This document shows positions 4,599 through 52,419 of a stretch of 64,000 nt of DNA, one piece after another (position 1 is the stretch's first letter; each line of letters opens with the position of its first letter). The notes under the pieces are model-generated. The model was not told where the DNA came from, did no database searches, and was given only the letters and a program-made list of their open reading frames with translations. Location: contig JBGVRH010000063.1 of assembly GCA_045128275.1 (NCBI GenBank), positions 1,739 through 65,738 of the forward strand, given 5' to 3'. The position numbers and the translations under genes are program-made. The DNA comes from Eubacteriales bacterium (GTDB lineage Bacteria; Bacillota; Clostridia; Oscillospirales; CAG-272).

Positions 4599-4607
4599 AG
4601 GATCTGT

Positions 4608-18794: not shown

Positions 18795-19120
18795 GGGTGA
18801 TGAAATCGTCATGCACGATGACCTCCGATCTTTGATCGGTAACTGAAATGTTTTTCCATAATCCTACGTGGAACGGTCCCGATGAAAATCGGGGCTGTTC
18901 TGTTTATACGGGGTGGAAAGAGAATTTCGATATCGAAAATGGATCGTGTGAAACGAGCCGTATGAAAGATTCTGAGGGCACAGAGAGGCACTTGGAAACG
19001 CCTATAAGCCTTACGGGAATAGGAAAAAAAGAAGAACCTAAGACAAACAACAGGCTATGCCATGTGTTCGTTTTAGGTTCTTATTGGCGGAGATGGGGGA
19101 ATGCCATTCATGTACACAAC
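18795..19120. repeat. junction module, copy A (others at ~32105-32294 and ~39800-40080)
   Basis: Shared blocks with copies B and F: GAAATCGTCATG, hairpin GGAAC.GTCCCGATGAAA.TCGGGGCTGTT, ACGAGCCGTA, hairpin AAGAACCTAAGACAAACA...TGTTCGTTTTAGGTTCTT, then TGGCGGAGATGG. Confidence 0.7.
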
Positions 19121-32104: not shown

Positions 32105-32294
32105 GGTTTTCTTGTGGGGGCGCGGGGGTATTTGGGGGTCCTTTTGAGGGCACTGGCGGCACCGAAAAGCACTAGTATGCCTCTCGGATTAAAGGACAAA
32201 AAAAGAAGAACCTAAGACAAACATCAGGCTATGCCTAGTGTTCGTTTTAGGTTCTTACTGGCGGAGATGGGGGAATGCCATTCATGTACACAAC
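32105..32294. repeat. junction module, copy B
   Basis: GAGGGCACTGGCGGCACCGAAAAGCA...AAGAACCTAAGACAAACATCAGGCTATGCCTAGTGTTCGTTTTAGGTTCTTACTGGCGGAGATGGGGGAATGCCATTCATGTACACAAC is near-identical to copy A. Confidence 0.7.
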
Positions 32295-39799: not shown

Positions 39800-40080
39800 C
39801 GTGAAGGAAATCGTCATGTATGACGGTAAGATCGAAATCTTTTTCCATAAGCCTACGCGGAACAGTCCCGATGAAAGTCGGGGCTGTTTTGTTTATACAG
39901 GTGAATATGGATCGTATAAAACGAGCCGTACAGACGATTCTAAGGGCATTGGCGGCACTCAAAAGCAACAGGATGCCTCTCATTGTGTAAATGGATAAAA
40001 AAAGAAGAACCTAAGACAAACACAGGCTTTGATATGTGTTCGTTTTAGGTTCTTATTTGGCGGAGATGGAGAGATTTGAA
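39800..40080. repeat. junction module, copy F, ending in the displaced tRNA-Ser 3' end (att site)
   Basis: Same blocks as copies A and B. It ends in TGGCGGAGATGGAGAGATTTGAA (40058-40080), identical to 52328-52350 inside tRNA-Ser. Confidence 0.75.
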
Positions 40081-40195
40081 TTATCAAATCCACATGATTT
40101 CCCGTAAAATAGGGTGAAAGCAAACGCCTGTTTTACCTTGTATATCAGCTCTTTTTCGGATTCTCCGTGAAATGCTGTACAATCAGAGATAAACG

Positions 40196-40238
40196 CATAA
40201 GGGGTATGATAAGGGGTATAGGGGGTATAATACCCCCC
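40196..40238. repeat. arm-type repeats ATAAGGGGTA near the left att site
   Basis: CATAAGGGGTATGATAAGGGGTATAGGGGGTATAATACCCCCC; related to 52221-52249. Confidence 0.55.
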
Positions 40239-40239
40239 A

Positions 40240-40383
40240 TCATTCGTTGCCGCTCCCCTCCGCGTTGCTGGCTTCCAAAAGCCTGCGGGCATAATCTATG
40301 AGTTCTTCAAGATTCTCTGTAGTTAAATCGCCGCGCTCGGCGGCTTCGCGGACGTACTGCATGAGCTTTTCTGCTTCTGTCAT
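40240..40383 (-). CDS. small hypothetical protein (47 aa)
   Basis: MTEAEKLMQYVREAAERGDLTTENLEELIDYARRLLEASNAEGSGNE with an AAGAAAGGG RBS. Below the ORF-track cutoff. Confidence 0.3.
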   Translation of the reverse strand: MTEAEKLMQYVREAAERGDLTTENLEELIDYARRLLEASNAEGSGNE

Positions 40384-40412
40384 GGTTTACCCTTTCTTAT
40401 GTTGCCCCCGTC

Positions 40413-40441
40413 TTGACAAACGGGTGAATTTGTGGTATAAT
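40413..40441 (+). promoter_or_regulatory. consensus sigma-A promoter for the candidate sRNA
   Basis: TTGACA (40413-40418), 17 nt, TATAAT (40436-40441). Confidence 0.55.
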
Positions 40442-40447
40442 AGCGGA

Positions 40448-40520
40448 AACACCCCGTTTTCTGATTGGTACTCATGTGGCGGGGTGTCCCCCCTGTATTC
40501 GCATTACAGGGGGGTTTTTG
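40448..40520 (+). ncRNA. candidate ~73-nt sRNA, convergent with the 91-aa gene and complementary to its translation initiation region
   Basis: Promoter, then hairpin 1 (AACACCCCG...CGGGGTGT) whose loop contains TTGGTACTCATGTG. Hairpin 2 is CCCCCCTGTA-TTCGCA-TTACAGGGGGG plus T5 (terminator). No ORF. Confidence 0.45.
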
Positions 40521-40523
40521 CTT

Positions 40524-40799
40524 TCACGCAATGGTGAAGCGGCGGGACTCGGTGGGCTTGGTGAACAGGGCGGCAATGTCGGGAACCGCCTTTTTCAGAG
40601 CGGCGGTGTCAAGGCGGTTGCTGGTGATCTTCGCCCAGCGGATCTTGATGGTTCCCGCCGTGATCTCCTCGACCCCTTGCGCCTCCATCTCGGCCTTGAT
40701 CTCGGCTTCAATGGCGGCCATCTGCTCGGCCAGCTCCTCGGCCTTGGCTTTCATGTGCTTCAGGGCTCTTGCCTTTGCGTTCATTTCGTTGGTACTCAT
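40524..40799 (-). CDS. coiled-coil phage-like protein (91 aa), function unknown
   Basis: AAGGAGAA RBS, Ala/Glu/Lys-rich helix. A consensus promoter on the minus strand lies at ~40950-40984 (TTGACA-17-TATAAT). Confidence 0.6.
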   Translation of the reverse strand: MSTNEMNAKARALKHMKAKAEELAEQMAAIEAEIKAEMEAQGVEEITAGTIKIRWAKITSNRLDTAALKKAVPDIAALFTKPTESRRFTIA

Positions 40800-41147
40800 G
40801 TGTGATTCTCCTTTGTGTTTTAGATTTGAGGAGGAGCGGCGCGGGGCTTTGCAATGCCTATGTGGGTCTCACTCGCATCCGTTCGCGCTCTTGCCTTGCG
40901 TTCTTGCTTTCCCTCTCGGTACTCCCGTCCGCCTTGGCTCATCCTGTGCTTATATTATACACTATTTCGCGTGTATTGTCAAGAGGTTTTTACACTTCTT
41001 TTCGTGTAAATCTGCACAAACATTTACATTTATTTTTGTGTATTTTTGCTCTTGAAATAGTGTATAAAATGTGGTATAATATGGGTACAATGGGAGAGGG
41101 GATGCCATTAAAAAAGCCCCCGCCCACAGAGAAACGGAGGTATAACC

Positions 41148-41357
41148 ATGCCATTGCAATACAAAATTGATGTTTTGGAGGCTCTAAAGGCTAAAGGATT
41201 CAACACCACGCGACTACGCCGTGAAAAGCTCCTTGCAGAAGGAACGATCCAAAAGCTACGGGAGCAAAAGCCGATCAATTGGGAGAACATCGCGCGTATT
41301 TGCGAAATGCTCAATTGCCAGCCTAACGATTTTTTGGAATACGTGGATAAACCATGA
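41148..41357 (+). CDS. small XRE/Cro-like HTH protein
   Basis: 69 aa. LLAEGTIQKLREQKPINWENIARICEMLNCQPNDFLEY matches the HTH_26-type short regulators. GGAGG RBS. Confidence 0.7.
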   Translation: MPLQYKIDVLEALKAKGFNTTRLRREKLLAEGTIQKLREQKPINWENIARICEMLNCQPNDFLEYVDKP

Positions 41358-41452
41358 CCACCACCAAGAGGGAGCGGGCGAACCGCTCCCCTTTTTGTTT
41401 GGTCTCCCTCTGAAAAAGTTAAAACAAATATAAAAATATTTGCCAAAACCTA

Positions 41453-41481
41453 TTGACAAATAGAATAATATGCGTTATAAT
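41453..41481 (+). promoter_or_regulatory. consensus promoter for hicAB
   Basis: TTGACA, 17 nt, TATAAT, about 20 nt upstream of the hicA RBS. Confidence 0.55.
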
Positions 41482-41503
41482 ATAATCACAGGAGGGAAAC
41501 CTA

Positions 41504-41701
41504 ATGAAAAGTTATTCATCAAGGGAAGTGATCGCCATGTTAAGGGCTGACGGATGGTATTTAGTAGCCACCGAAGGAAGCCACCACCACTTCAAGCATC
41601 CCGACAAAAAGGGAAAGGTAACGGTCAAGCATCCATGCAAGGACATACCGCCAAAGACCTTGAAGAGCATTTCGATCCAGTCGGGGTTACAGTTTCCGTA
41701 A
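41504..41701 (+). CDS. hicA: HicA mRNA-interferase toxin
   Basis: SSREVIAMLRADGWYLVATEGSHHHFKHPDKKGKVTVKHP is the canonical HicA pattern. Confidence 0.9.
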   Translation: MKSYSSREVIAMLRADGWYLVATEGSHHHFKHPDKKGKVTVKHPCKDIPPKTLKSISIQSGLQFP

Positions 41702-41743
41702 TCCCGGCTTCCCCCCTGTACTTCACGAAAGGAGAGCAAGAGC

Positions 41744-42157
41744 ATGAAGAAACCCGATCGTTACGTTTATCCCGCCGTGCTGACCTATGAGGACGGCTAT
41801 GAGATCGCCGTGACCTTCCCCGATCTGCCTGGGTGCGCTACCTCGGGAGAGACCGACACCGAGGCTCTGATGATGGCCAAAGAGGCGTTAGGACTCCATC
41901 TGTGGGGCATGGAGAATGACGGTGACGAACTCCCCGCCCCTTCGCCCATCCGCGATATTGAGCTGGAGGCGGGGGAAATCGTGGCATTGGTGGAGGTATA
42001 TATGCCCTCCGTCCGTCTGTCACAGGAAAACCGCTCCGTAAACCGCACCGTGACCCTTCCCGCATGGCTGAACGCACAGGCCATGGAGCGGGGTGTAAAC
42101 TTCTCACAGGTGCTACAGGACGCGCTTCGGGCGGAGATCAACAGACCCCGCGTATAA
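41744..42157 (+). CDS. hicB: HicB antitoxin
   Basis: YVYPAVLTYEDGYEIAVTFPDLPGCATSGETDTEALMMAKEALGLHL is a HicB N-terminal domain. RHH-like C-terminus (VNRTVTLPAWLN). Confidence 0.9.
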   Translation: MKKPDRYVYPAVLTYEDGYEIAVTFPDLPGCATSGETDTEALMMAKEALGLHLWGMENDGDELPAPSPIRDIELEAGEIVALVEVYMPSVRLSQENRSVNRTVTLPAWLNAQAMERGVNFSQVLQDALRAEINRPRV

Positions 42158-42235
42158 TACCCATAAAAGGGCGGCAGAAAATGCCGTCCTTTTTGCTTTG
42201 AAAACATGGGAAAAAGTCAGCCGTGAGCGGTTGCG

Positions 42236-42748
42236 GTATATAGTCAGAAATTTCAGGTTTTTTCAGGTTTTCTTCGCTTCGTCTTTGCTTCAAAGCGGTT
42301 CACCCTCCGTGCTTCGTCCGCGCTTCGATGGAATTTTTATATAGGCGAAAATGTCAACAAATGTCAACAATCGCGCCTTTTTTATACATGACCGCAAAAC
42401 TCAAAAACGCCCGTTTTTGTCATGGTCTTGATCGGTGCGCGTGAGCGGTTTTCTCTCGGTTCTCTCTCGCTTCAAAGCGGATCGGGGATAGTATTCCATA
42501 TAGGCGGAAATATTAGGTTTTCTTAGGTTTTGCGGATGTTGATGGTTGTCCTATATATGCGGAAACGGAAGGTTTTGTAAGGTTTTCGGCTGTGATCGGC
42601 TGTTCTATATAGGCGAAAATATCAACATTCGTCATCATTCGCGCCGCCGCGTACCGTGGGCGGTTGGTTCCTATATAGGCGAAAACCTCAACATTTCTCA
42701 TCATTTGTCCGCTCTGATTATCTGCGAAAGGTCAAGTTTTGTCAAGTT
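42236..42748. repeat. iteron-like array: 6-7 units of TATATAGGCGAAAA each followed by a unit-specific tandemly doubled word
   Basis: Units start at about 42236, 42337, 42496, 42550, 42604, 42670 and (42722). See the finding for sequences. Confidence 0.7.
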
Positions 42749-42945
42749 CTTTTTCCTCACTAAATCGGTGCGTTTCTCTCGCCTCGTTTTCGGTTTGAAG
42801 CAAATTGAAGAGCCTACCCCAATCACAAACTTCCGCAGTTTTCGGGTTCAACAAGGGATCCGCCGCCGTACTCTCTTGAGCGGTTGCCCTAAAGCTGAAA
42901 AAACATAACCGCCCTCGCAAGGAAGGCGGTCATGCTTATGAAACG

Positions 42946-43956
42946 TTATTCAGTTTGCGTAGATGTATCTGTGGGTTCGGTTTGAAACTCGGTTGCCCAC
43001 TCGGTCTCTGTTTCGGGCTCCTGTGTTTCCTCCGCTATGGCCGTTGTTTCGGTTTCAGACAATTTGTCCGCGACCTTTTCCAACGGGGGAACAGCAAAGA
43101 ACGAAGCGATCATCAAAATAAACAGAATGATATTGAGCCAAACGACATGATAGAAGCGCTTGTAGATGCGTTTGAACCGATGGCATTTGTCGGGACATTC
43201 CTGACAGGACGGGGACTTGCAGGCTGCCGCTATGGTCCTCCCGCACAAGCGCCCGATAAAGTAGATCAGAAGAGACAGGATGTCTACAAAGGCCAAGGCC
43301 ATAGCGAAGAACGCTACCATAACCTTGTAGAGGGGGACACGGTTCGCCAAGAGTGCCGAAACATTTCCGAGTATCTCCATGGTACCGAAGCAAGCCACAA
43401 CGATGGCGACGAAGATTCCGAGGACGGCGATAATTTGGGAAAAGATGCTGGATTCAAATGCCTCGAGCTTCTTCTGAGTACCCATGTATTTTTTCTTTAA
43501 TTGCTGATAATGTTTGTCTGAAGCTTTTATATTTTCCTCAAATTTCTTAAACTCTTCAGTTTTTTCAGCAAACTCACCGCGTACCCGATCAACATCTGCG
43601 TTCAGGGAAAAGAAGCTATTCATTTGAAGATACTGAAGATCTACATGGTCCTTCAGTTTTCTCAACTTTTCCATGAAAGCAGCATTATCTCGGTACGGAA
43701 CGTTAGAATCACAATAACAGATGATTCGATCCAGTGTTATTGAAACCACAATTACAGGATCATCTTTCCCAGATGACTGTGACTCTTTTACCAAGTCATA
43801 AAGTGTGGATGAAATATTCGCGTATGAGTGTCGAAAGGAATCAATATCATACACGCACTCATAAAGAATTTTGGCAAAATCGGGAATATCATCGTCGCTC
43901 TTTACTTCTGCAATCAAAGTCAGAAGATCGGATAGTTCTACGTCTCTATTCTTCAT
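42946..43956 (-). CDS. uncharacterised protein: soluble N-domain, coiled coil, 3 TM helices with a Cys-rich loop (putative Panacea-associated toxin)
   Basis: Starts 3 nt after the stop of the DUF4065 gene. TM helices IFSQIIAVLGIFVAIVVACFG, VMVAFFAMALAFVDILSLLIYFIG and VVWLNIILFILMIASFFAV. Loop CKSPSCQECPDKCH. Acidic T/E-rich tail. AT-rich. Confidence 0.7.
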   Translation of the reverse strand: MKNRDVELSDLLTLIAEVKSDDDIPDFAKILYECVYDIDSFRHSYANISSTLYDLVKESQSSGKDDPVIVVSITLDRIICYCDSNVPYRDNAAFMEKLRKLKDHVDLQYLQMNSFFSLNADVDRVRGEFAEKTEEFKKFEENIKASDKHYQQLKKKYMGTQKKLEAFESSIFSQIIAVLGIFVAIVVACFGTMEILGNVSALLANRVPLYKVMVAFFAMALAFVDILSLLIYFIGRLCGRTIAAACKSPSCQECPDKCHRFKRIYKRFYHVVWLNIILFILMIASFFAVPPLEKVADKLSETETTAIAEETQEPETETEWATEFQTEPTDTSTQTE

Positions 43957-43959
43957 AGC

Positions 43960-44394
43960 TTATTTGCAAAAATAATCGCGCATATTGCGTACCGTTATCG
44001 TCTGCTGCTTATTATCAAAAGCCACTCTCCAAGGCGTACCAGCCCTGTGCGTTTCCTGAACCAGATCCCACGCGGACTGATCTCCATACCGGCAGATAAT
44101 CTTGTCAATCACACTTTTGATTTCACCGATAATCGCAGGGGTAGGATACTGCTTGCATATGGGCGACGCACCATAATGGCGGTATCTCTCGTACACGATA
44201 CGAACTACGGGACCATAGTTCCAAACTTCAATCGTGTCCTGAAAAGCGATCTCACCATGTTCCTTTAATGCTTCTCCTTGGACGAAATACAGCATCTTCT
44301 GCAATTTCAAGTTTGAAACAGGTGTTCCGTTTTCATAAGAAACCGTAATAATATACTCCGCAATTTTCATAGCAGTAGAAGTATTAAAACGCAT
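43960..44394 (-). CDS. Panacea/DUF4065-domain protein (SocA/PanA-like antitoxin)
   Basis: SNLKLQKMLYFVQGEALKEHGEIAFQDTIEVWNYGPVVRIVYERYRHYG matches the DUF4065 core (L.KLLY.aqg......g.plf.d.ieAw..GPVv..vY). GGGAGG RBS. Confidence 0.8.
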   Translation of the reverse strand: MRFNTSTAMKIAEYIITVSYENGTPVSNLKLQKMLYFVQGEALKEHGEIAFQDTIEVWNYGPVVRIVYERYRHYGASPICKQYPTPAIIGEIKSVIDKIICRYGDQSAWDLVQETHRAGTPWRVAFDNKQQTITVRNMRDYFCK

Positions 44395-44702
44395 GAATCA
44401 CTCACCTCCCATTTCGTTAAAAAATAACACAAAATCATACAATTCGACACAGTACGGTAAAATCAATACCAACGAGTGTAATATAAAACCATACCATACT
44501 ATTATCATTTTGTCAAGTACATTATAACATAATTTTGTAAACATTTCTTGTCAACGCAATGAACAAATGCAATATTTTGTCATATCTTGGCAGATTTTTG
44601 ACACATTTGTGTCATTTTAGCCGTACGGAACAAAATGGGTCCCCACGGTACCGCGAGCCGTGCTATAATACAGTATAAGCAAAAAACAGAAAGGAGGTGC
44701 CC

Positions 44703-44853
44703 CATGTCCCATACCCCATCCCCTCGTCCCCTCTTCGGCAGAGAGAAGATCACCTCGTCGGTATCCCGCGTGGACACCTCTAACGTGGTCTGCGTGCCGG
44801 AGTTTGCCCCAAAGGCCAACGCAAAGGAAACGCAACGCCGAGAATGCCCCTAA
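44703..44853 (+). CDS. small hypothetical protein (50 aa)
   Basis: Strong AAAGGAGG RBS 6 nt before the ATG (MSHTPSPRPLFGREKITSS...). No family recognised. Confidence 0.3.
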
Positions 44854-44996
44854 AAGCCCGTAGAGCGGTTTCCTATTTTGGCGTGCAAATGGTGCAATTT
44901 GTGCAATAAACGCCACACGCAAAGAATACGGGGCAAATTCGGGCATTGTGGCCGCTCATGCTCCGCTCAAAAGAAAAATCCCCCTATTTCGGGGGA

Positions 44997-45509
44997 TCAA
45001 TCGTAAATGTGGGCGGTAGCAATTGCCCAGTAAATTCTTCGGGCACGGGAGAGCCAGCCGTAAACCGTGGAGCGGGAAACATAGTGGGTCATGCAGAATT
45101 TCGTGATTCTGCTGTCAATATCACTCTTGTGGAGCGGTTCCGTAGGGCGGACAAAGTACACGGCTTTCACGGCTTCGATGATCCACGGCTTTTCCATAGC
45201 CCGTAATACGGATAGGGTTTGTGAAACGAACACCTCACACGGAATGTCGCGGGGATCCACTTCGCTGATCCGTGGAGCGGTTTCGCCGTTGGCGGCGTAC
45301 CGTCGGAATGCCTCGGTTATTTGGGCGCGTTCCGCTCTTCCCAATCGGGGCGGCTCACGGTGTCGCAAACCGCCCCTTTCTTCATTGCCCGCGCTTGTAC
45401 ATGGCTGGGGATCCTTCGCGCTTCGCTCGGGCTTTGTTTGAGATTTTCTCCTCGGTTCCTCCTTGCTTTCTTTGCGGGATTCCTCTTGGTTTGCTCTTGC
45501 TTCAAGCAT
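44997..45509 (-). CDS. HTH-containing phage regulatory protein (possibly ArpU/RinA-like late regulator)
   Basis: C-terminal THYVSRSTVYGWLSRARRIYW looks like an HTH/sigma region-4-like segment. Overlaps the stop of the 978-aa gene by 8 nt. The true start is uncertain. Confidence 0.45.
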   Translation of the reverse strand: MLEARANQEESRKESKEEPRRKSQTKPERSAKDPQPCTSAGNEERGGLRHREPPRLGRAERAQITEAFRRYAANGETAPRISEVDPRDIPCEVFVSQTLSVLRAMEKPWIIEAVKAVYFVRPTEPLHKSDIDSRITKFCMTHYVSRSTVYGWLSRARRIYWAIATAHIYD

Positions 45510-48438
45510 GGTTCATTCGGTTGCGCTTGAAGTTGAAATAGATCCGATTCGGTGCTATACGGCCATTCTTGCCCAGCATAAACCGCCCGCCCTTGATGAT
45601 TGCCCAAGACTCAAAGCCCGTGGGCGGTGTGCCGACATAGGTCAGACAGCCGTTGACCGTGTCCACGGTGATGGGGAAGGTGGCAAGGTAGCCTTTCACA
45701 TCCGTCGTTCCCGTGAGCTGGTTGATTCTACGGCCATAGAAATAGATCTGTGCCGAGGTGGCCATCTGGGATTGACGGACGGCGGCACAATGGTACGCGA
45801 TGCCGTCACCGATGATCAGCCCGTCGTTGGTGATGTAGTGGAGCTGGTAGGAGAGACATCCCGCGTCTGCGCTGTCCTTGTGCCATAGGACGGGGTATTT
45901 GCCTGTATTGACCATTACCGTGCCCCCGCTGATTCCCGAAGATTCGGGGAGATTGTGGGCGGTCTGAAGGGCATTGGAAGAGGTTGCACCCGTCAAGAGC
46001 CTAAAGCCTACCGAGTGGGCTTGTGCATAGAAGGGATCGCCGTATGGGACGTAATCTTGGACGCGGTAGGAGGCCACGGAATCGGGGATAAAGGGGTGTT
46101 TCATGGTTCCGCCCGTGGAGGACTTGGAGCCAGCGGCAAAATTATCTTCCATCCGCCAGCCGAAGTACAGGGATGTACCAAGCGCAAGGGAGATCACGGG
46201 CAAAGCCACGGGCTTGGAGGTGATGGGGTTGCCGTCCTCATCGTAGGTGGTGACCTCGGCAAGGCTCGCATCTTTCCCGCCCGATTGGCTGGAGAACGCC
46301 CGCATTACCTCGTTACGGAGGGCGACGGTCATGGCGGTGTTGGCATCGTCGGCGGTCTTTGCGCCGACCTCGCAAAACTCCTCCAGCACCGTGTAGCGAT
46401 CCTCCGATGCGGGGATCTCAAACTGGCGGATGGCGTTATTGATTTCCACCCTCGCGCCGAGCTGGTTGTAGCCCGTTGACAGGGCAATATTGGCCAGCAC
46501 GAAGTCATGGTAGATCCGCGCCGTCACGGAGGAGATGTAGTTGTCATCATCGTAGAGAGTGCCAGGGGAAGGAACGTCCTCCAGCCGTCTGAACATATAC
46601 ATCATGGAGTCCGAGGAGGAGGCCATCATGGCAAGCTGACCGCGTAAATTTTCCCCAAACTGACGGGACGACAATTTATTCGCGGACTGGTTGTGCGCCA
46701 GAACCGAAGGAAACGCGCCGTCATAGGTGGGCTTGTACTGGCGTACACGCGCCGTGACGGACGGAATATAGGTGATGCGGAACATGAGATTGGGGTAATC
46801 CAGACCCCGCAGAATGCCCGAAGGTGCGCCTGTGACGGCGGTGATGACGTTAGTGATGGAGTAATCCTCAAAGGCGTTGAGTGCGCTTGCGGCGGCATCC
46901 TGCGCCTTGTACCACAGACCTTCAATGTTGGGTGCGCCCTGCTTATAATACAGAGCATAGGTCTTGGAGGTGGGGTATGCGCCCGAGAATCCCGAGAGGA
47001 TGTCATACTCGGACTTTTCAAAGATGTACGGGGTAATGTCGCCCCCTGCGTAGGTCTTGCCGCCTACGGTAAAGGAGCCGACCTCCACCTTGAGGAGCTT
47101 TTCCACAGGGTGGGAGGTCTTGATGATGCCCGTCCCCTCGGTGATGCGTACATCCTCGGTTGCGGCGCGGATGGACATATACCCTCCCCCGAAAGGCTCG
47201 GTCATGCTTCCGTCCGCCTCATCGTCAAGGTTGACGAGGTTTGCGGCGAGAGCTTCAAGCCCTGCGGTGTAGTCGCCCACGGTGATGGTGGACGCGCCTC
47301 CGTAGCGCGTACCCTTGGAAAGGTCTGCCCGATCCAGCCCGCCCAGCTCGTCGAACTCGATATAATCAAGCCCGTCGGTGAGGTCATGGACGGCGCGGGG
47401 GATGGCGTGGACGTACTGGCCGACCTCTCGCAAGCATTCCCACAAGCTCCGACCGTTGGAGAAGCGGAACTCTGGGGCGGCCTTTTGGAAAATCTTCCTC
47501 TGCTCCTCGCTCTTGTAGCGGAGGCGGTAGCGGGGGGAGTCAAGGCCTTCTCGGAGGGTTTCGGAGGTGTCAAGGAGGATTTCCACCACATCCTCGACGG
47601 TGTATGGGTCACGGGTGACAGGATCGGCAACATTTAGAATATCAAATAAGACTCCATATTTCGGTGTCCCATTCGCCATTTTCAAAAGAGCAATAATTGT
47701 ATATACTCCCTCTTTTGTGTTATCTACTGTAAAGGATTCCGAGATTCCAATGTCGTTTTTCTCTAAAATCAAAGTCGATTCATTCTTGGGAGTGAATCGC
47801 ACAACTCCTTTAGTACTTGTTTCTACATAGGTAAGAGCCGTCTCTTTTTTGTTGTAGTATATTTTTACATCGCCTTTTGTCAAATCCGTGCCAGGAGAGA
47901 TTGATATGTGCTTATCAAAATCTACAAAAGATGAGAATGGGTAAAATGTCATGCTTCCTCTAATGATTGGCGATGAAAAACTACCAGATTTCATCAATTC
48001 AGGTTCAAACCCGCTGTCCGGAATTGGATAGTCAAACCAAGCCAAATTTCCGATTTTTGGCAAAAACAAATAATAAGGCCTCGTTGCTCCGTCTGTGTAA
48101 TCCTTCACAATCGGATTAGTGAACGCCTTATCCCCACACAGAATCCGCTCGGTCTCCTTGGTGTACTCCATTACGGTGACGGTGTGCTTGTAGCGATTCG
48201 CGCCGATCTTTTCTTCCACCTCATCGATGGCCACGATCCAGCTCATGGCGTGGTCTCCTCGCCCGATCTCCACGGGGGTGAAGGGGGCGAAAGGTTCCTT
48301 GCGGCGGGTGTTCGGCAGGTCCACCACGGCGAAATCAAGGGTCTCGTCAAGGGCTTTTTGGACAACGAATGGAAAGGTGAAATACTCGGTGTAATCCTCG
48401 CCGCCGATGATGAGGCGGTTGTATTTGGTGTTAATCAT
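45502..48438 (-). CDS. 978-aa beta-rich phage structural-like protein (tail/minor structural-like), mosaic
   Basis: No NTPase motifs. The composition and N-terminus (MINTKYNRLIIGGEDYTEYF...VDLPNTRRKEPF) are reminiscent of siphovirus tail-tip/minor structural proteins; this is a weak call. An internal AT-rich block lies at ~47630-48120. Confidence 0.5.
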   Translation of the reverse strand: MINTKYNRLIIGGEDYTEYFTFPFVVQKALDETLDFAVVDLPNTRRKEPFAPFTPVEIGRGDHAMSWIVAIDEVEEKIGANRYKHTVTVMEYTKETERILCGDKAFTNPIVKDYTDGATRPYYLFLPKIGNLAWFDYPIPDSGFEPELMKSGSFSSPIIRGSMTFYPFSSFVDFDKHISISPGTDLTKGDVKIYYNKKETALTYVETSTKGVVRFTPKNESTLILEKNDIGISESFTVDNTKEGVYTIIALLKMANGTPKYGVLFDILNVADPVTRDPYTVEDVVEILLDTSETLREGLDSPRYRLRYKSEEQRKIFQKAAPEFRFSNGRSLWECLREVGQYVHAIPRAVHDLTDGLDYIEFDELGGLDRADLSKGTRYGGASTITVGDYTAGLEALAANLVNLDDEADGSMTEPFGGGYMSIRAATEDVRITEGTGIIKTSHPVEKLLKVEVGSFTVGGKTYAGGDITPYIFEKSEYDILSGFSGAYPTSKTYALYYKQGAPNIEGLWYKAQDAAASALNAFEDYSITNVITAVTGAPSGILRGLDYPNLMFRITYIPSVTARVRQYKPTYDGAFPSVLAHNQSANKLSSRQFGENLRGQLAMMASSSDSMMYMFRRLEDVPSPGTLYDDDNYISSVTARIYHDFVLANIALSTGYNQLGARVEINNAIRQFEIPASEDRYTVLEEFCEVGAKTADDANTAMTVALRNEVMRAFSSQSGGKDASLAEVTTYDEDGNPITSKPVALPVISLALGTSLYFGWRMEDNFAAGSKSSTGGTMKHPFIPDSVASYRVQDYVPYGDPFYAQAHSVGFRLLTGATSSNALQTAHNLPESSGISGGTVMVNTGKYPVLWHKDSADAGCLSYQLHYITNDGLIIGDGIAYHCAAVRQSQMATSAQIYFYGRRINQLTGTTDVKGYLATFPITVDTVNGCLTYVGTPPTGFESWAIIKGGRFMLGKNGRIAPNRIYFNFKRNRMNHA

Positions 48439-48553
48439 GTAGCTCCTCCTTTACTGTTTGGCATTTCAATTTGAACCGCAACAACGCCCCCAACGGCTTC
48501 GGATTCGTTGGGGGTGCTTACGCGGCGGCGGTTGGTGGTTTACGGCTCTTTGC

Positions 48554-49387
48554 TCATGCTCCCGCTCCTTGCGCCGTCAATTCACGGGTAAGCTCGGCGC
48601 ACCGTTCCACGCGGCGGCTCTTGCCGTTTGGCTGACCGACCGACAGGAGCGCACAGCTCCCGAGCATTCGGTCAAATACGCGGCGTTTGTCCCTGTCATC
48701 GTCCCCTCTCAATTCTGAAAGGGTGTAATTCGTGGTGATAATGAGCGGAACAAGCCCATCCGTCAAATAATCAATGATCCGCCACTCGACCTCCGTCATA
48801 AATTCCGTGGATTGCTCCACGCCCATATCGTCAAGCACGATCAGATCATACGAAAGCAGACTTTGCAGAAAATCCACCTTATTCACGAAAACCCTGTTTC
48901 CGTCCTTGAAGGATTTGGGATCCCACAGTTTGTCCCGCAAGGTGAGGAAATCCGTCACAAGAACGTTATACCCTCGGTCAATGAGATCGTTTGCGACGGC
49001 ACACGCCAAATAGGTTTTACCGCCTCCGTTCTGACTGGAATGGAGTATGATACCGCGCCCTTGCTTCTTGTTCTCGTCGAAATTCGCACAATAGGCTTTC
49101 ATGGTGTCGGAAGCGGTGGGGTTTCGCCTGTCATCGTTGGCGAAGGTAAAATCAAATCTCCTTGACCGCTTTTTCTCAAAAGCCTTTTCCCGTCTGTTCT
49201 CGGCCTTTTGGTGGCGTTCCTTTTCGGCTTCCGTTTCTTTGCATTGACAAGAGACACGGACGATCTTACCTATAAACGTTTGTGTCATATCCTTGGATAC
49301 GGGGTGATTACACACCCCGCAATACCAAACGCCGTCCCGCTCATATTCGCCGTCCTTCGCCTTGAATCCGTTGTTTTTAACATCCAT
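48554..49387 (-). CDS. DnaC/IstB-like AAA+ helicase-loader protein
   Basis: GIILHSSQNGGGKTYLACAVANDL Walker A, DLIVLDDMGVEQ Walker B, N-terminal Cys-rich zinc-ribbon-like segment. Confidence 0.8.
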   Translation of the reverse strand: MDVKNNGFKAKDGEYERDGVWYCGVCNHPVSKDMTQTFIGKIVRVSCQCKETEAEKERHQKAENRREKAFEKKRSRRFDFTFANDDRRNPTASDTMKAYCANFDENKKQGRGIILHSSQNGGGKTYLACAVANDLIDRGYNVLVTDFLTLRDKLWDPKSFKDGNRVFVNKVDFLQSLLSYDLIVLDDMGVEQSTEFMTEVEWRIIDYLTDGLVPLIITTNYTLSELRGDDDRDKRRVFDRMLGSCALLSVGQPNGKSRRVERCAELTRELTAQGAGA

Positions 49388-50051
49388 TGAAAAATTCCTC
49401 CATGCTTATATCGTCTTGTGTGTGCGCGGGTACGGGTGTTTCATCGTCCCACCGTCCTTGATTCAGCCATGTGGCGGGGTTTGGGATGTATTGCCCATTA
49501 TCCCGCTTCCATTGATCGGAGGCTTTCTGCTCCTTGATTGCCTCCAGCATTCGCTGAAGCAGATCGGCGGAGGGCTTGACCTTCATGAACGCCTTTCGCG
49601 CCGCCTCTTTGCCCACCTTCTTGGGGTAGGCTTTCCAAAATTCAGCAAACCGCTCGGCGTACACATCCGACCCCGTAGGGGGAGAAGCGCACTTCGTGCG
49701 CGTTGTTCGCTTTGCTTCACTTAACTTCACTTCACTTATCTTCACTTCACTTAGGGGATGTAGGGGGGTAGGGGAGGGGGGTATGGTAGGGGGCTTGGGC
49801 GTTTCTGCTGTTTTGCTTCCCTTCCCCCCTTTTTGACCGTCTAAACGGCGCAAAATCGTGCTTTCACATGACTTCGCTATGGCGTTTGCGGTAGGGTTTT
49901 CAAATGTGGGGAGCGGCGTTTGGTTCTGTTGCAGATCAATCAGAGAATCTAAAACCGCCCGATAATCCTCGGGGGGCAACAGGCGCAGAAGCGGGAGCCA
50001 ATCGTAAAGGAGCAAAAACCCCTTTTCAAGGTTGTATGACTTGTTGGACAC
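49377..50051 (-). CDS. phage replisome-organiser/DnaD-like replication protein
   Basis: C-terminal FAEFWKAYPKKVGKEAARKAF...DQWKRDNGQYIPNPATWLNQGRWDDE is the conserved phage replication-protein signature. Overlaps the dnaC-like start by 11 nt. Confidence 0.75.
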   Translation of the reverse strand: MSNKSYNLEKGFLLLYDWLPLLRLLPPEDYRAVLDSLIDLQQNQTPLPTFENPTANAIAKSCESTILRRLDGQKGGKGSKTAETPKPPTIPPSPTPLHPLSEVKISEVKLSEAKRTTRTKCASPPTGSDVYAERFAEFWKAYPKKVGKEAARKAFMKVKPSADLLQRMLEAIKEQKASDQWKRDNGQYIPNPATWLNQGRWDDETPVPAHTQDDISMEEFFNGC

Positions 50052-50055
50052 CCGC

Positions 50056-50238
50056 TCACCCCCTCGCGGCCTGTTCGTTCAGCCACTTTTTAAGGGCTTC
50101 CACGGGTACGATGATGCGGCGTTCAGACACACGGACGGCGGGGAATCCTTCCCGCTTCGTCAGCTCATAGGCCACGGGGCGGCTGATACCGAGCATAGCG
50201 GCCATTTCATCGACGGAAACGGTGAGTTTTTCGGTCAT
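50056..50238 (-). CDS. xis: excisionase-family (HTH_17) DNA-binding protein
   Basis: MTEKLTVSVDEMAAMLGISRPVAYELTKREGFPAVRV. Start trimmed to the internal ATG, which overlaps the upstream stop (ATGA). Confidence 0.75.
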   Translation of the reverse strand: MTEKLTVSVDEMAAMLGISRPVAYELTKREGFPAVRVSERRIIVPVEALKKWLNEQAARG

Positions 50239-50429
50239 TCGTCCCCCTCCTTTTCTCCGCTCTCGGCCATCATTTCGCGGGCTTTCTTCTCCCAAAATCT
50301 TTCACGGTTCGCCCTTACCTTATCGGGGTTCTTCTGCCGCCACTCCTTCTGATAGGCTCGGCGGGCTTCCCTCTTGGCAGCTTCCATGTCGATGGGCTTA
50401 GCGGTCGTGGTGGGTTTGTTGCTGTTCAT
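50235..50429 (-). CDS. small basic phage/ICE-type protein
   Basis: AAAGGAG RBS; AKREARRAYQKEWRQKNPDKVRANRERFWEKKA. First gene of the leftward operon. Confidence 0.55.
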   Translation of the reverse strand: MNSNKPTTTAKPIDMEAAKREARRAYQKEWRQKNPDKVRANRERFWEKKAREMMAESGEKEGDE

Positions 50430-50478
50430 TTGTTCAGCTCCTTTCAATTAACCTTGTTAACTTTTTTTCTTTTACCTA

Positions 50479-50507
50479 TTGACAAACTAAACAGGCTTTG
50501 GTATAAT
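50479..50507 (+). promoter_or_regulatory. consensus promoter for the cI-like repressor / integrase operon
   Basis: TTGACA, 17 nt, TATAAT in the divergent intergenic region. Confidence 0.5.
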
Positions 50508-50624
50508 TATAGAGCAAAAACTAAAGAAAGTCAATACCAAAACTACACTTTCTTCACTTTTGTATGAATGAACAAATTTAGTTTGTTTTGTTTGTTTTGC
50601 TTGCACGAAAAAGGAGAGTTAAGA

Positions 50625-51014
50625 ATGTTCTACGAAAGGCTTATCATGGCATGCGCCATACACAACACCACACCAACCGCAATTTGTCGGGCTATCGGAT
50701 TATCTGAGGCCGCCGCCACCCGCTGGAAACAGGGATCAAAACCGCACGATACAACGATCAAAAAAATAGCCGATCATTTGGGGGTGAGTGTTTTCTTTTT
50801 TTGGGGTGAAGATTTAAAAAAAACGCCCATTGGTTTTATCGATGAAGCCATGACATATGAATACGAAAGGCTAAAAAACCATCAGGAAAGCGAAGCCGCC
50901 ACCACAGAGAATCCCATAATCGAAAAAATAGAAGAAGCCTTAAAAGAGCTGACAGAAGAAGAGCTGAAAGAGGTTGATCGATATGTGGATTATCTTGTAA
51001 ACCGTAAGAAGTGA
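50625..51014 (+). CDS. XRE/cI-like repressor
   Basis: Start trimmed to MFYERLIMACAIHNTTPTAICRAIGLSEAAATRWKQGSKP (GGAGAG RBS). Divergent from the xis/replication operon. Confidence 0.75.
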   Translation: MFYERLIMACAIHNTTPTAICRAIGLSEAAATRWKQGSKPHDTTIKKIADHLGVSVFFFWGEDLKKTPIGFIDEAMTYEYERLKNHQESEAATTENPIIEKIEEALKELTEEELKEVDRYVDYLVNRKK

Positions 51015-51047
51015 AACGGTTCTGAAATTTAACTTGCGGAGAAAACC

Positions 51048-52190
51048 ATGAAGAATCGTAACGCAAAAGGCGGCGGCTCCGTCCGTCAGCGCGAAAACGG
51101 CACATGGGAAGCCCGATGCACCATCAACGGGAAGCGGGTGAGCTTCTACGGGGAGAAACAGGCGGAGGTTTTGAAGGCCATGAGAGCGGCGCAGAAGTCC
51201 GCCGATGATGGCGCATACTTTGAGCCGAAACGGATCACCCTTGAAAAGTGGCTTGAAATGTGGCTTGACGAATATGTGAAGCCCTCGGCAAAACCGCTCA
51301 CCTTCGCCACCTATGAGAGCCGAACCCGTACCCACATAATCCCCGCCCTCGGTAAAATCAAGCTGGTAGCCCTCAATGCTACCCAAATACAGGCGTTCTA
51401 TAACCGTCTCCAGCGCGAAATGAACCTTTCCCCGAAAACCATCAAGAACGTCCACGGGATCCTCCACAAAGCCCTTGAACAGGCGTTGAAGCTCCGCTAT
51501 ATTGGCATGAACCCCGCCGACTCTTGCACCCTTCCCCGCATGGAGAAAAAGGAGATCCAACCGCTCAAAGAGGCAGAGCTTGCCGCCTTTCTGTCGGAGA
51601 TCCAGGAGGACGAACCGCTCCGCGATCTGTTCACCGTTGCCGTGTTCACGGGTATGCGGGAGGGTGAGATCTGCGGGCTACCGTGGGAAGCCGTAGACTT
51701 CGCAAACAACACGATCACCGTCAAGCAACAGCTCATGCGGGAAAAGAAAAAAGGCGGCCAGCACTACATAGCGGCCACCAAAAACGATAAATGGCGGAAA
51801 CTGACCGTCCCGCCGTTTGTCATGGATATTCTGAAAAGGGTACAGGAGGAGCAGAACCGCTCCCGCGATCTGATGGGCGCGGCATGGCTGAACCACTTCG
51901 GCCTTGTGTTTACGAACCCAGACGGGCGGTATATCATGCCCCAAACCGCCTTTAAACGGTTCAAGAAGGCCGCCGAGAAGGTGGGCAGACCCGATGCCCG
52001 CTTCCACGATCTGCGCCACACCTACGCCGTCATATCCCTTCAAGAGGGGGACGATATAAAGACCGTCCAGCAGAACCTCGGCCACGCCACGGCCAGCTTC
52101 ACCCTTGATGTGTACGGCCATGTTTCGGAGAAAATGAAACAGGAGAGCGCGGACAGAATGCAATCCTATTTTGAGAAAATCACCGACTAA
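51048..52190 (+). CDS. int: tyrosine site-specific integrase
   Basis: SAM-like N-domain plus a catalytic domain with TGMREGEICGL (Arg), FHDLRHTYA (H-x-x-R) and LGHATASFTLDVYGH (catalytic Tyr region). Confidence 0.9.
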   Translation: MKNRNAKGGGSVRQRENGTWEARCTINGKRVSFYGEKQAEVLKAMRAAQKSADDGAYFEPKRITLEKWLEMWLDEYVKPSAKPLTFATYESRTRTHIIPALGKIKLVALNATQIQAFYNRLQREMNLSPKTIKNVHGILHKALEQALKLRYIGMNPADSCTLPRMEKKEIQPLKEAELAAFLSEIQEDEPLRDLFTVAVFTGMREGEICGLPWEAVDFANNTITVKQQLMREKKKGGQHYIAATKNDKWRKLTVPPFVMDILKRVQEEQNRSRDLMGAAWLNHFGLVFTNPDGRYIMPQTAFKRFKKAAEKVGRPDARFHDLRHTYAVISLQEGDDIKTVQQNLGHATASFTLDVYGHVSEKMKQESADRMQSYFEKITD

Positions 52191-52220
52191 ATACCCCCGA
52201 AAAATACCCCCAAAAATTCT

Positions 52221-52249
52221 ATAAGGGGTACGATAAGGGGTAAAACCCC
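52221..52249. repeat. arm-type repeats ATAAGGGGTA near the right att site
   Basis: ATAAGGGGTACGATAAGGGGTAAAACCCC, between int and the tRNA. Confidence 0.55.
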
Positions 52250-52327
52250 GAAAAATGCCCGATTTTACGCAAAAATAAAAGCACCGAAAGTCCTTGATGG
52301 ATAAGGATTTTCGGTGTTTTCTTATGT

Positions 52328-52419
52328 TGGCGGAGATGGAGAGATTTGAACTCTCGCGCCGGTTAACCCGACCTACACCCTTAGCAGGGGCGCCTCTTCG
52401 GCCTCTTGAGTACATCTCC
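52328..52419 (-). tRNA. tRNA-Ser (anticodon GCU)
   Basis: Hand-folded on the minus strand: GGAGATG acceptor, anticodon stem CGCCC/GGGTG with loop CTGCTAA, long variable arm, T-arm GAGAGTTCAAATCTCTC, encoded CCA; 92 nt. Confidence 0.9.

Follow-up and report, generated by a model that had tools for sequence, protein, structure and literature searches.

Within the 64,000-nucleotide stretch of DNA analyzed here (the window), a 144-aa open reading frame with a Panacea (DUF4065) core is followed almost immediately by a 336-aa open reading frame whose product is predicted to cross the membrane three times. Do these two genes form a toxin-antitoxin (TA) pair and, if so, is the larger protein a toxin of a new type or a member of a family that has already been described? 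We conclude that the pair, panA-panT, is probably a type II PanAT toxin-antitoxin operon whose toxin belongs to the published PanT cluster T4, and we put the probability of this reading at about 0.8.

Organization of the panA-panT locus

Both genes lie on the reverse strand, panA (43960-44394) upstream of panT (42946-43956), and are separated by 3 nt (TAA-gct-ATG). A gap this short suggests translational coupling; reading the sequence directly, we found no Shine-Dalgarno at the panT start comparable to the GGGAGG of panA. The promoter-like region that a preliminary description of this DNA had assigned to the pair is recognizable as two tandem sigma-70-like sites, TTGACA-17-TATGTT at 44554-44526 and TTGACA-17-TATGGT with an extended TG at 44516-44488. 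Both score 10/12, and the scan upstream of panA returned 9 sites versus 4.4 ± 2.3 in shuffled sequences. A hairpin of 16 bp followed by a U-tract closes the operon (–26.2 kcal/mol, z = –4.89; 0 of 200 shuffles equally stable). It was missed by the consensus terminator scan, which accepts a hairpin only where the 8 bases beginning 0–2 nt past the stem include 5 or more T. An Rfam scan of 39900-45600 returned no RNA family. The coordinates of all features are collected in Table 1.

Table 1. Features of the panA-panT locus, in window positions
Feature	Positions	Strand	Basis
Intrinsic-terminator-like hairpin and U-tract, directly 3' of the panT stop	42898..42937	–	Folding versus shuffles
panT residues 290–336 and stop codon, acidic T/E-rich tail	42946..43089	–	Charge, alignments
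panT residues 271–289, TM3	43090..43146	–	Hydropathy, alignment A2
panT residues 236–270, basic loop, predicted cytoplasmic	43147..43251	–	Charge count
panT residues 175–231, TM1 (175–193), short outer loop, TM2 (213–231)	43264..43434	–	Hydropathy
panT residues 113–172, K/E-rich coiled-coil stalk	43441..43620	–	AlphaFold2, alignment A2
panT residues 1–112, all-helical N-domain, predicted cytoplasmic	43621..43956	–	AlphaFold2, pLDDT 80–94
panA, 144-aa standalone Panacea (DUF4065) antitoxin	43960..44394	–	Pfam PF13274
Shine-Dalgarno GGGAGG, 10 nt 5' of the panA ATG	44405..44410	–	Read directly in the sequence
Two putative tandem sigma-70-like promoter sites 5' of panA	44488..44554	–	Consensus matches only

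The pair is carried by a 12.3-kb mobile element that is integrated at tRNA-Ser and also encodes HicAB, a second TA. We found no endolysin, capsid, tail, lysis or structural genes on the element, and no defense genes beyond HicAB and panA-panT. The preliminary description had noted that the pair is AT-rich relative to the element's replication genes; its GC content is 0.44–0.45 versus 0.56–0.58 at 45–47 kb and 0.51–0.53 at 47–50 kb.

PanA is a standalone Panacea protein

The DUF4065 assignment, made at first from the translated sequence, holds in a profile search. PanA matches Pfam PF13274 (SocA_Panacea) with 64.9 bits (cutoff 25.7, E 1.6e–17), residues 31–122 covering model positions 1–112 of 113, and it also matches phrog_1281 (E 4e–40). 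The protein consists of Panacea alone, with no extra HTH, PAD1 or ZBD domain, and carries the conserved GPV motif as WNYGPVV. This motif of Panacea is required for antitoxin function in PanA(Vib. har.) (PMC8832971), and standalone Panacea is reported to act directly to neutralize its toxin (PMC10440598). A sequence search of the PDB with PanA found nothing, and the PADLOC-DB v2 models contain no family for it.

Architecture of PanT

The plan first outlined for the 336-aa protein, namely a helical N-domain, a coiled coil, three hydrophobic segments, a Cys loop and an acidic tail, was recovered in full by AlphaFold2, hydropathy and charge. Several residues of the N-domain are conserved family-wide in alignment A2: Y36, the motif FRHxYS (R42, H43, Y45) and the motif KLxDHxxLE (K100, D103, H104, L107). 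In the AlphaFold2 model one long helix (residues 92–204) makes the stalk continuous with TM1. No other part of the protein varies as much across the family, or has as many indels, as the stalk (mean p-distance 0.86, indels in A2); TM1-TM2 is the most conserved part of PanT, almost invariant among 9 close homologs (dN/dS 0.02–0.12).

The basic loop that follows contains CKSPSCQECPDKCH, with 9 K/R residues together with C246, C251, C254, C258 and H259. At least 90% of the sequences in alignment A2 share C251. In the more distant viral members the loop mostly lacks Cys altogether, so the four-Cys arrangement is a subfamily trait; the loop is a candidate zinc site. TM3 is preceded by the equivalent of the family motif KRLPYVFWxN, and N275 is conserved. 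The acidic tail (291–336) has a net charge of –12, is modeled with pLDDT <50, is predicted to lie outside the membrane, and is confined to the window PanT and its 8 closest relatives.

Structure searches with the PanT model returned designed helical repeats and 14-3-3-like noise only from the PDB (Foldseek, E ≥ 0.14) and, from BFVD, only two uncharacterized phage proteins of similar length, aligned over their full length. A PDB sequence search with the toxin family gave coiled-coil noise only. Matches to DUF2207_C, DarT, GajA, SMC and XhlA (Pfam, NCBIfam, PADLOC) were rejected as compositional or coiled-coil noise, all being under curated cutoffs; the GajA match (E 0.0011, 15.9 bits) was the only one that PanT gave among the PADLOC-DB v2 models. 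The SMC and coiled-coil matches fall on the stalk and are spurious.

The PanT family is consistently paired with Panacea genes

An exhaustive profile search places PanT in a family of 1,266 representative clusters at E ≤ 1e–3, and of 363 at E ≤ 1e–10, with mostly full-length alignments among the top matches listed. The family corresponds to phrog_5763. A word-indexed search with the single protein (8 clusters) had suggested a very rare family, and the exhaustive search overturned this; run with a 60-sequence alignment, the word-indexed search drew mostly low-complexity candidates and gained a single protein. Members occur in gut Clostridia, epsilonproteobacteria, Synergistota, Melainabacteria, prophages and gut archaeal assemblies, and also in chromosomal loci of many phyla. 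A tblastn search of GenBank phages gave one weak, unannotated match. Scanning genome contigs with the close-homolog alignment A1 gave no matches, and the genome loci were retrieved with a tighter 10-sequence sub-alignment, A3.

Among the homologous loci we evaluated those for which upstream DNA is available. In all of them (134/134) the toxin gene is preceded on the same strand by a Panacea gene, which abuts it in 126. Among viral loci the Panacea frame is directly upstream in 63 of 63; among GTDB genome loci it is upstream in 71 of 71, abutting in 63 and 74–586 nt away in the remaining 8. All six close-homolog loci have the same panA-panT arrangement. This survey of homolog neighborhoods, of the kind proposed in the preliminary description, shows the pairing with Panacea to be essentially obligate.

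Assignment of PanT to the published cluster T4

Cluster T4 was catalogued by Kurata et al. 2022 (PNAS 119:e2102212119, PMC8832971), and the T4 table of that paper lists, by exact accession, four members of our family: WP_028042020.1, WP_026943962.1, WP_108775278.1 and WP_016146556.1. The window PanT matches WP_028042020.1 over residues 41–284 (BLASTP E 1e–20; hhalign 98.4%) and the Helicobacter rodentium member WP_026943962.1 over columns 10–283 (hhalign 95.8%, E 7.7e–9); the latter in turn matches the family HMM with E 7.7e–39. Family matches reach the H. rodentium, H. labetoulli and Campylobacter concisus members. Identity of the window PanT to the T4 members named in the paper is only ~25–28%. 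Two intergenic gaps also agree with those in the T4 table (H. rodentium –20, Lactimicrobium +6). T4 toxins are described as having a coiled-coil-like N-terminal region and TM helices at the C-terminus (PMC8832971), and PanT fits this architecture by AlphaFold2 and hydropathy.

The validated T4 pair is PanA/PanT of Helicobacter sp. 13S00482-2 (WP_095295401.1/WP_095295403.1). Its toxin, PanT(Hel. sp.), is toxic in E. coli and neutralized by PanA, shuts down transcription, translation and replication together, and causes strong DiSC3(5) depolarization without SYTOX uptake, i.e. without large pores (PMC8832971). A second tested member, WP_074138355.1 from a C. difficile phage, was scored as 'not Toxic' in E. 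coli, and PanA-PanT pull-downs were published for five PanAT pairs, all other than T4 (PMC8832971). The tie of our protein to WP_095295403.1 is indirect and runs through the paper's own clustering and the matches to three other epsilonproteobacterial species. By homology, then, PanT would be a membrane-acting toxin, as the preliminary description proposed; toxicity, neutralization and depolarization are taken over from the published homolog and would apply to the window pair by analogy.

The same description had put PanT forward as a candidate new type of toxin, and this part does not stand: the four accession matches identify the family as T4, and a family already catalogued in 2022 with a tested member is not a new toxin type. 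Among the papers searched we found no later ones on T4 or PanT, and the Helicobacter T4 pair does not appear in the NetFlax paper. What the present analysis adds are the N-domain motifs FRHxYS and KLxDHxxLE, the four-Cys loop of the subfamily, recombination mosaics and the 12.3-kb carrier.

Purifying selection and recombination in the operon

Between homologs, dN/dS is 0.02–0.34 across all regions, as expected from purifying selection. It is 0–0.15 in panA and 0.09–0.18 in the N-domain of panT, and the latter range led us to reject positive selection on that domain. Since dN/dS is low and the pair is kept across hundreds of lineages, panA and panT are not chance open reading frames.

Comparison of near-identical operons revealed mosaics. 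PanA is 100% identical in the window and in two further loci, L069 and L071. The L069 toxin has a swapped loop/TM3 module (28% identity), and the L071 toxin is diverged from the N-domain through TM2, with dS of 0.5–1.6 versus 0.06 in panA. Because dS jumps from 0.06 to 0.8–1.6, we attribute the divergence to recombination. An identical PanA alongside a swapped loop/TM3 indicates that PanA specificity is independent of that module. A mirror-tree comparison of PanA with toxin regions gave Spearman correlations of 0.51 for the N-domain and 0.34 for loop/TM3; these are weak and confounded by shared phylogeny, and for this reason we do not rely on them. Taken together, the mosaics and this weak, phylogeny-confounded signal suggest that the PanA contact site may lie outside loop/TM3.

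Proposed mechanism and biological role

We suggest that panA and panT are transcribed as one message from their own promoter, with PanA translated from its strong ribosome-binding site and PanT through coupling 3 nt downstream. The three helices would insert PanT into the cytoplasmic membrane, leaving the N-domain on its coiled-coil stalk and the basic four-Cys loop in the cytoplasm and the acidic tail outside; the stalk may also mediate oligomerization. Unrestrained, PanT would dissipate the membrane potential by ion leakage rather than through large pores, and growth would stop. PanA, as a standalone Panacea protein, would make direct contact with PanT from the cytoplasmic side; it would bind the N-domain, the stalk or TM1-2 and not the loop, TM3 or tail, and bound PanA would keep the toxin inactive. 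The role of panA-panT would most likely be to stabilize the 12.3-kb element, to kill infected cells upon loss or displacement of PanA, or both.

Whether abortive infection or phage exclusion is the main role is a question about biology that is compatible with the TA mechanism and sets defense against plain element addiction. Here PanA or the N-domain of PanT would sense a phage product, the channel would be released, and the infected cell would be depolarized and die. We regard this as possible but rather unlikely. Members of the family abound in prophages and viral contigs, where they occupy accessory-gene positions, and the NetFlax authors put Panacea forward as a sensor and showed antiphage activity of another membrane-depolarizing TA, RosmerTA of phage Kita. 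Moreover, relative to the L001 variant the element is most diverged in the panA-3'/panT-5' region, and panA/panT alleles are shuffled by recombination. However, our literature search found no defense or antiphage phenotype reported for any T4 pair, neither protein matches PADLOC models above noise, and the uniformly low dN/dS gives no sign of positive selection on the N-domain. An element with HicAB and no other defense genes fits element stabilization equally well.

More speculatively, and in our view with still smaller odds, T4-type PanT might be an antitoxin-gated ion channel on a stalk whose N-domain senses a ligand or protein, making the pair a sensor-effector defense system rather than plain addiction. 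In this reading the variable coiled coil would hold the N-domain, with its invariant cluster Y36/R42/H43/Y45 and K100/D103/H104, at ~60 residues from the membrane. In the subfamily of the window PanT, the four-Cys loop would serve as a further switch, operated by zinc or redox, and PanA and the N-domain would jointly time the opening, for example on phage infection.

It is quite improbable that PanT is non-toxic in its native host, a membrane-anchored structural or signaling protein (e.g. for superinfection exclusion) with PanA as a regulatory partner and not an antidote. One of the two tested T4 members is indeed not toxic in E. coli, but the authors themselves treat non-toxicity in a heterologous host as weak evidence (PMC8832971), and the other member is toxic and rescued by PanA. 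PanT also far exceeds typical membrane TA toxins in size and complexity and has a conserved polar set (RH..Y, DH) in a folded N-domain. Against this, in 134 of 134 evaluable loci the gene is strictly co-linear with one of an antitoxin family, with frames mostly overlapping or abutting, and this is the signature of a TA pair. Finally, pinholins depolarize without large pores, as would PanT, there are weak sub-threshold XhlA/hemolysin matches over the stalk, and some viral loci have the pair near lysis-type genes; nevertheless, a holin/antiholin-like lysis timer, with PanT as a pinholin-like depolarizer and PanA as its inhibitor, is very hard to reconcile with a carrier element that has no endolysin, capsid or tail genes, with a family that is also chromosomal in many phyla and present in archaeal assemblies, with proteins of 270–350 aa bearing a large cytoplasmic N-domain (170 aa in the window PanT), unlike holins, and with an XhlA score of 12.3 bits against a cutoff of 34.7.

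Implications for annotation and mutagenesis

The panA-panT pair is a real module, but not the first of a new class. Where a gene annotated as phrog_5763 or "hypothetical protein" comes after a Panacea gene, it can be labeled a PanT (T4-type) membrane toxin, a relabeling that reaches more than 1,000 representative clusters. The T4 family is among the largest partners of PanA and has a phenotype for only one member. The N-domain motifs, the Cys loop of the subfamily and the mosaics in which PanA tolerates a swapped loop/TM3 offer handles for mutagenesis.

Comparison with known systems

The pair most resembles the PanT T4 systems. As in these, a standalone Panacea antitoxin lies directly upstream of the toxin (antitoxin-toxin order, gaps of about –20 to +20 nt), the N-terminal part is helical and coiled-coil, the TM helices are C-terminal, and there is homology to the four listed members. 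T4 hosts are mostly Firmicutes together with Helicobacter and Campylobacter, often with the pair in prophages. The window PanT differs in its ~25–28% identity, the four-Cys basic loop before TM3 and the long acidic T/E tail; the N-domain motifs and Cys loop found here are absent from the description of Kurata et al. 2022.

RosmerTA (RmrT/RmrA) of Gordonia phage Kita is likewise a two-gene module borne by a phage; its toxin has its membrane region at the C-terminus and depolarizes cells, and its antiphage activity is demonstrated. Its antitoxin, however, is an ImmA-type protease/HTH protein and not Panacea, its toxin also permeabilizes the membrane, and we saw no sequence relationship between it and the window pair. 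SocAB of Caulobacter crescentus, a type VI TA, shares an antitoxin with a Panacea domain. SocA, however, acts as a ClpXP adaptor in the degradation of SocB, which is not a membrane protein, whereas published PanAs neutralize without ClpXP or Lon (PMC8832971). Membership of our pair in SocAB was rejected: with the NCBIfam SocA equivalog NF047745 PanA reaches 86.7 bits (cutoff 190), and its three-TM partner is unrelated to SocB.

The PanTs of clusters T3 and T12 (E. coli STEC O31, Bartonella apis/choladocola) are likewise membrane-depolarizing toxins neutralized by PanA, which contacts the cytoplasmic segment ahead of the TM region. These are small peptides with a charged N-terminus that form large pores (SYTOX-positive), whereas the T4-type PanT of the window, at 336 aa, combines a folded N-domain with a stalk and three TM helices, and its validated relative depolarizes without permeabilizing.

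The panAT locus and its carrier element

The Panacea gene (panA) and the gene of its three-TM partner (panT) are separated by 3 nt (TAA-gct-ATG). A preliminary description, made from the sequence alone, gave both ORFs their exact positions, and its observation is confirmed in all details: the pair is AT-rich (GC 0.44 versus 0.51–0.58 in the genes upstream), and two sigma-70-like sites lie upstream of it. A GGGAGG ribosome-binding site precedes panA, none precedes panT, and directly 3' of panT there is a 16-bp hairpin with a U-tract (–26.2 kcal/mol, z = –4.9).

A 24-nt direct repeat delimits a 12.3-kb integrated element around the pair. The right copy overlaps the 3' end of tRNA-Ser(GCT) and adjoins a tyrosine integrase; an HTH repressor and a replication module (DnaD-like initiator, DnaC-like loader) are also encoded. 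We found no virion (capsid, tail) or lysis genes in these 12.3 kb, which makes the element a candidate satellite-like or replicative integrative element.

Features of the element and its surroundings (window positions)
Feature	Position	Strand	Remark
~250-nt recurring sequence	~39812-40063; 18845-19096; 32198-32270		first copy left of the left att copy
Integrated element	40057-52350		12.3 kb
Direct repeat TTGGCGGAGATGGAGAGATTTGAA	40057-40080 and 52327-52350		24 nt, element bounds
HicA	41504-41701
HicB	41744-42157
Iteron-like array	42229-42711		between panT terminator and hicB
panT	42946-43956	minus	336 aa
panA	43960-44394	minus	144 aa
Sigma-70-like sites	44554-44526 and 44516-44488		upstream of the pair
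Orphan ORF	45502-48438	minus	978 aa, largest element gene
DnaC-like helicase loader	48554-49387
DnaD-like replication initiator	49377-50051
Tyrosine integrase	51048-52190
tRNA-Ser(GCT)	52328-52419	minus

A related metagenomic genome (locus L001) has a variant of the element at this site, with the host flank 95.7% identical and the element 79–88% identical; the panA-3'/panT-5' stretch does not align in blastn because of its high divergence. The complete HicAB toxin–antitoxin pair, encoded on the strand opposite to PanAT and ~800 nt downstream of it, is absent from this otherwise syntenic element and thus represents an indel between element variants. The iteron-like array, in which a TATATAGGCG(A/G)AAA-type unit occurs six times as two 43–44-nt subtypes (D1, D2), is kept there and may be the replication origin of the element or a set of regulator-binding sites. 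The orphan ORF has no match at all in Pfam or PHROG; it is conserved (975 aa) in the element variants L001 and L002, flanked by the DnaC-like loader gene and by the small gene preceding panA. The ~250-nt sequence (89–96% identity to the L001 copy) is a candidate intergenic repeat or IS remnant.

Domain architecture of PanA and PanT

Panacea is the sole domain of PanA, and the proposed DUF4065 assignment holds in profile searches (Pfam PF13274, SocA_Panacea, formerly DUF4065: 64.9 bits, gathering score 25.7; phrog_1281: E 4e–40). Its NCBIfam SocA equivalog score (86.7 bits) is far under the cutoff of 190. For PanT, nothing scored above threshold among curated families; it matches phrog_5763, a family of unknown function (E 3.9e–26).

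In an AlphaFold2 model based on nine homologues, the N-domain of PanT is confidently all-helical (pLDDT 80–94, residues 1–160), and residues 92–204 form one helix continuous into the first membrane segment. Hydropathy and charge analysis places TM segments at 175–193, 213–231, and 271–289. The loop at 236–270, with nine K/R and a CKSPSCQECPDKCH cluster, is predicted to be cytoplasmic by the positive-inside rule, and the tail (291–336, net charge –12) to lie outside the membrane. Model, hydropathy, and charge match the layout first described: soluble N-domain, coiled coil, three TM helices, Cys-rich loop, and acidic tail. We found no solved structure related by sequence to PanA or PanT and no significant structural neighbour of the PanT N-domain.

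The toxin family is paired with Panacea

A word-indexed search with PanT returned only eight related clusters, all metagenomic; their alignment has a nearly invariant TM1-TM2 and an N-domain ~45% identical. Exhaustive profile search recovered 1,266 representative clusters at E ≤ 1e–3 (363 at E ≤ 1e–10), and the top matches listed are mostly 270–350 aa and align end to end. Family-wide features were read from a 60-sequence alignment. Conserved in the N-domain are Y36, a FRHxYS motif (R42, H43, Y45), and a KLxDHxxLE motif (K100, D103, H104, L107). A highly variable coiled coil with many indels is followed by TM1 and TM2; next come a basic loop with Cys, a KRLPYVFWxN motif, and TM3.

For a sample of 64 IMG/VR and 74 GTDB species-genome loci, we HMM-scored all ORFs for the toxin family and Panacea. 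A Panacea ORF lies immediately upstream on the same strand at 63/63 viral loci with upstream DNA (three other viral cases, which start at a contig edge, were left out). All 71 evaluable genome loci have one as well: it abuts the toxin gene in 63 and lies 74–586 nt upstream on the same strand in the remaining 8, where the toxin ORFs look frameshifted or mis-started. The arrangement is the same at 6/6 close homologue loci. The association is thus essentially obligate and extends from unrelated phage backbones to chromosomes of many phyla.

One viral contig (L025) has a second Panacea ORF (4382-4939, minus) ~1.5 kb downstream of its pair on the opposite strand, which may belong to another PanAT module. 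The toxin with its upstream Panacea also occurs in archaeal assemblies (L108, L113, L116, L122, L131, L136, L145) of Methanomethylophilaceae, Ca. Methanoprimaticola, Thermoplasmata, and Methanosarcinaceae, mostly from gut or rumen samples, pointing either to transfer of the module between domains or to contamination during binning.

Recombination and PanA specificity

PanA is 100% identical in the window and in loci L071 (toxin P0002) and L069 (toxin P0003). Between the window and L071, dS is 0.06 in panA, 0.5–1.6 from the first toxin codon through TM2, and 0.07 at the 3' end. The loop/TM3 module of the L069 toxin is 28% identical to the window protein and 96% to the P0005 group. Recombination thus shuffles alleles. 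A single PanA accommodates an N-domain that differs by 18% as well as an exchanged C-terminal module, which places PanA specificity outside the loop, TM3, and tail. Values of dN/dS (0.02–0.34 throughout) indicate purifying selection with no arms-race signature.

P0003 joins a window-type N-domain and stalk to a P0005-type loop/TM3/tail (compare window 43090-43270 and L001). Its breakpoint falls inside the TM1-TM2 coding sequence, a nearly invariant stretch that may serve to anchor recombination.

Relation to the T4 toxins and proposed mode of action

Kurata et al. (2022) catalogued Panacea-adjacent toxins in numbered clusters (PMC8832971). Cluster T4 is large and mostly Firmicutes, includes Helicobacter, Campylobacter, and Fusobacterium members, and always has the antitoxin before the toxin with small gaps; its validated toxin, PanT(Hel. 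sp.) from Helicobacter sp. 13S00482-2, has an N-terminal coiled-coil-like region and C-terminal TM helices (PMC8832971). Exact-sequence look-ups of our family members gave four accessions, all in the T4 table: WP_028042020.1 (Ca. Stoquefichus massiliensis), WP_026943962.1 (Helicobacter rodentium ATCC 700285), WP_108775278.1 (Lactimicrobium massiliense), and WP_016146556.1 (Butyricicoccus pullicaecorum DSM 23266). Measured intergenic gaps equal the table values (H. rodentium –20, Lactimicrobium +6). PanT matches WP_028042020.1 over residues 41–284, from the FRHSY motif to TM3 (BLASTP E 1e–20; hhalign probability 98.4%), and the H. rodentium member over columns 10–283 (hhalign 95.8%, E 7.7e–9). 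By these sequence matches, PanT is assigned to the published, partly validated T4 family as a divergent member; the link to PanT(Hel. sp.) itself rests on the paper's clustering and on matches in three other epsilonproteobacterial species.

PanT(Hel. sp.) is toxic in E. coli, with growth rescued by PanA; it shuts down transcription, translation, and replication simultaneously and strongly depolarises cells in the DiSC3(5) assay with no uptake of SYTOX Green, i.e. ion leakage rather than large pores (PMC8832971). Neutralisation by PanA requires neither ClpXP nor Lon (PMC8832971). The other T4 member tested by these authors, encoded by a C. difficile phage, lacked toxicity in E. coli (PMC8832971). 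The NetFlax follow-up shows direct toxin neutralisation by standalone Panacea and proposes Panacea as a sensor (PMC10440598). By homology, the window pair would act like PanT(Hel. sp.) and its PanA. The N-in, C-out three-TM topology and long stalk suggest that PanT oligomers form a channel, whose regulatory end would be the cytoplasmic N-domain.

The presence of two TA modules on a small replicating element is consistent with a role in addiction, and the frequent occurrence in prophages is just as consistent with defence. We found no antiphage phenotype of T4 in a literature search, and no PADLOC model matches the pair. We consider a sensor-gated channel acting in defence rather unlikely. The size of PanT, its cytoplasmic domain, and the lack of lysis genes make a holin-like function unlikely.

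The preliminary reading of a PanAT pair with a membrane toxin was right. New here are the conserved N-domain motifs, the subfamily-specific acidic tail and predicted cytoplasmic four-Cys loop, the mosaic evidence for toxin regions not bound by PanA, the family breadth including gut archaeal assemblies, and the equation of phrog_5763 with T4. The overall novelty is modest: the proposed new toxin type is the published T4 family.
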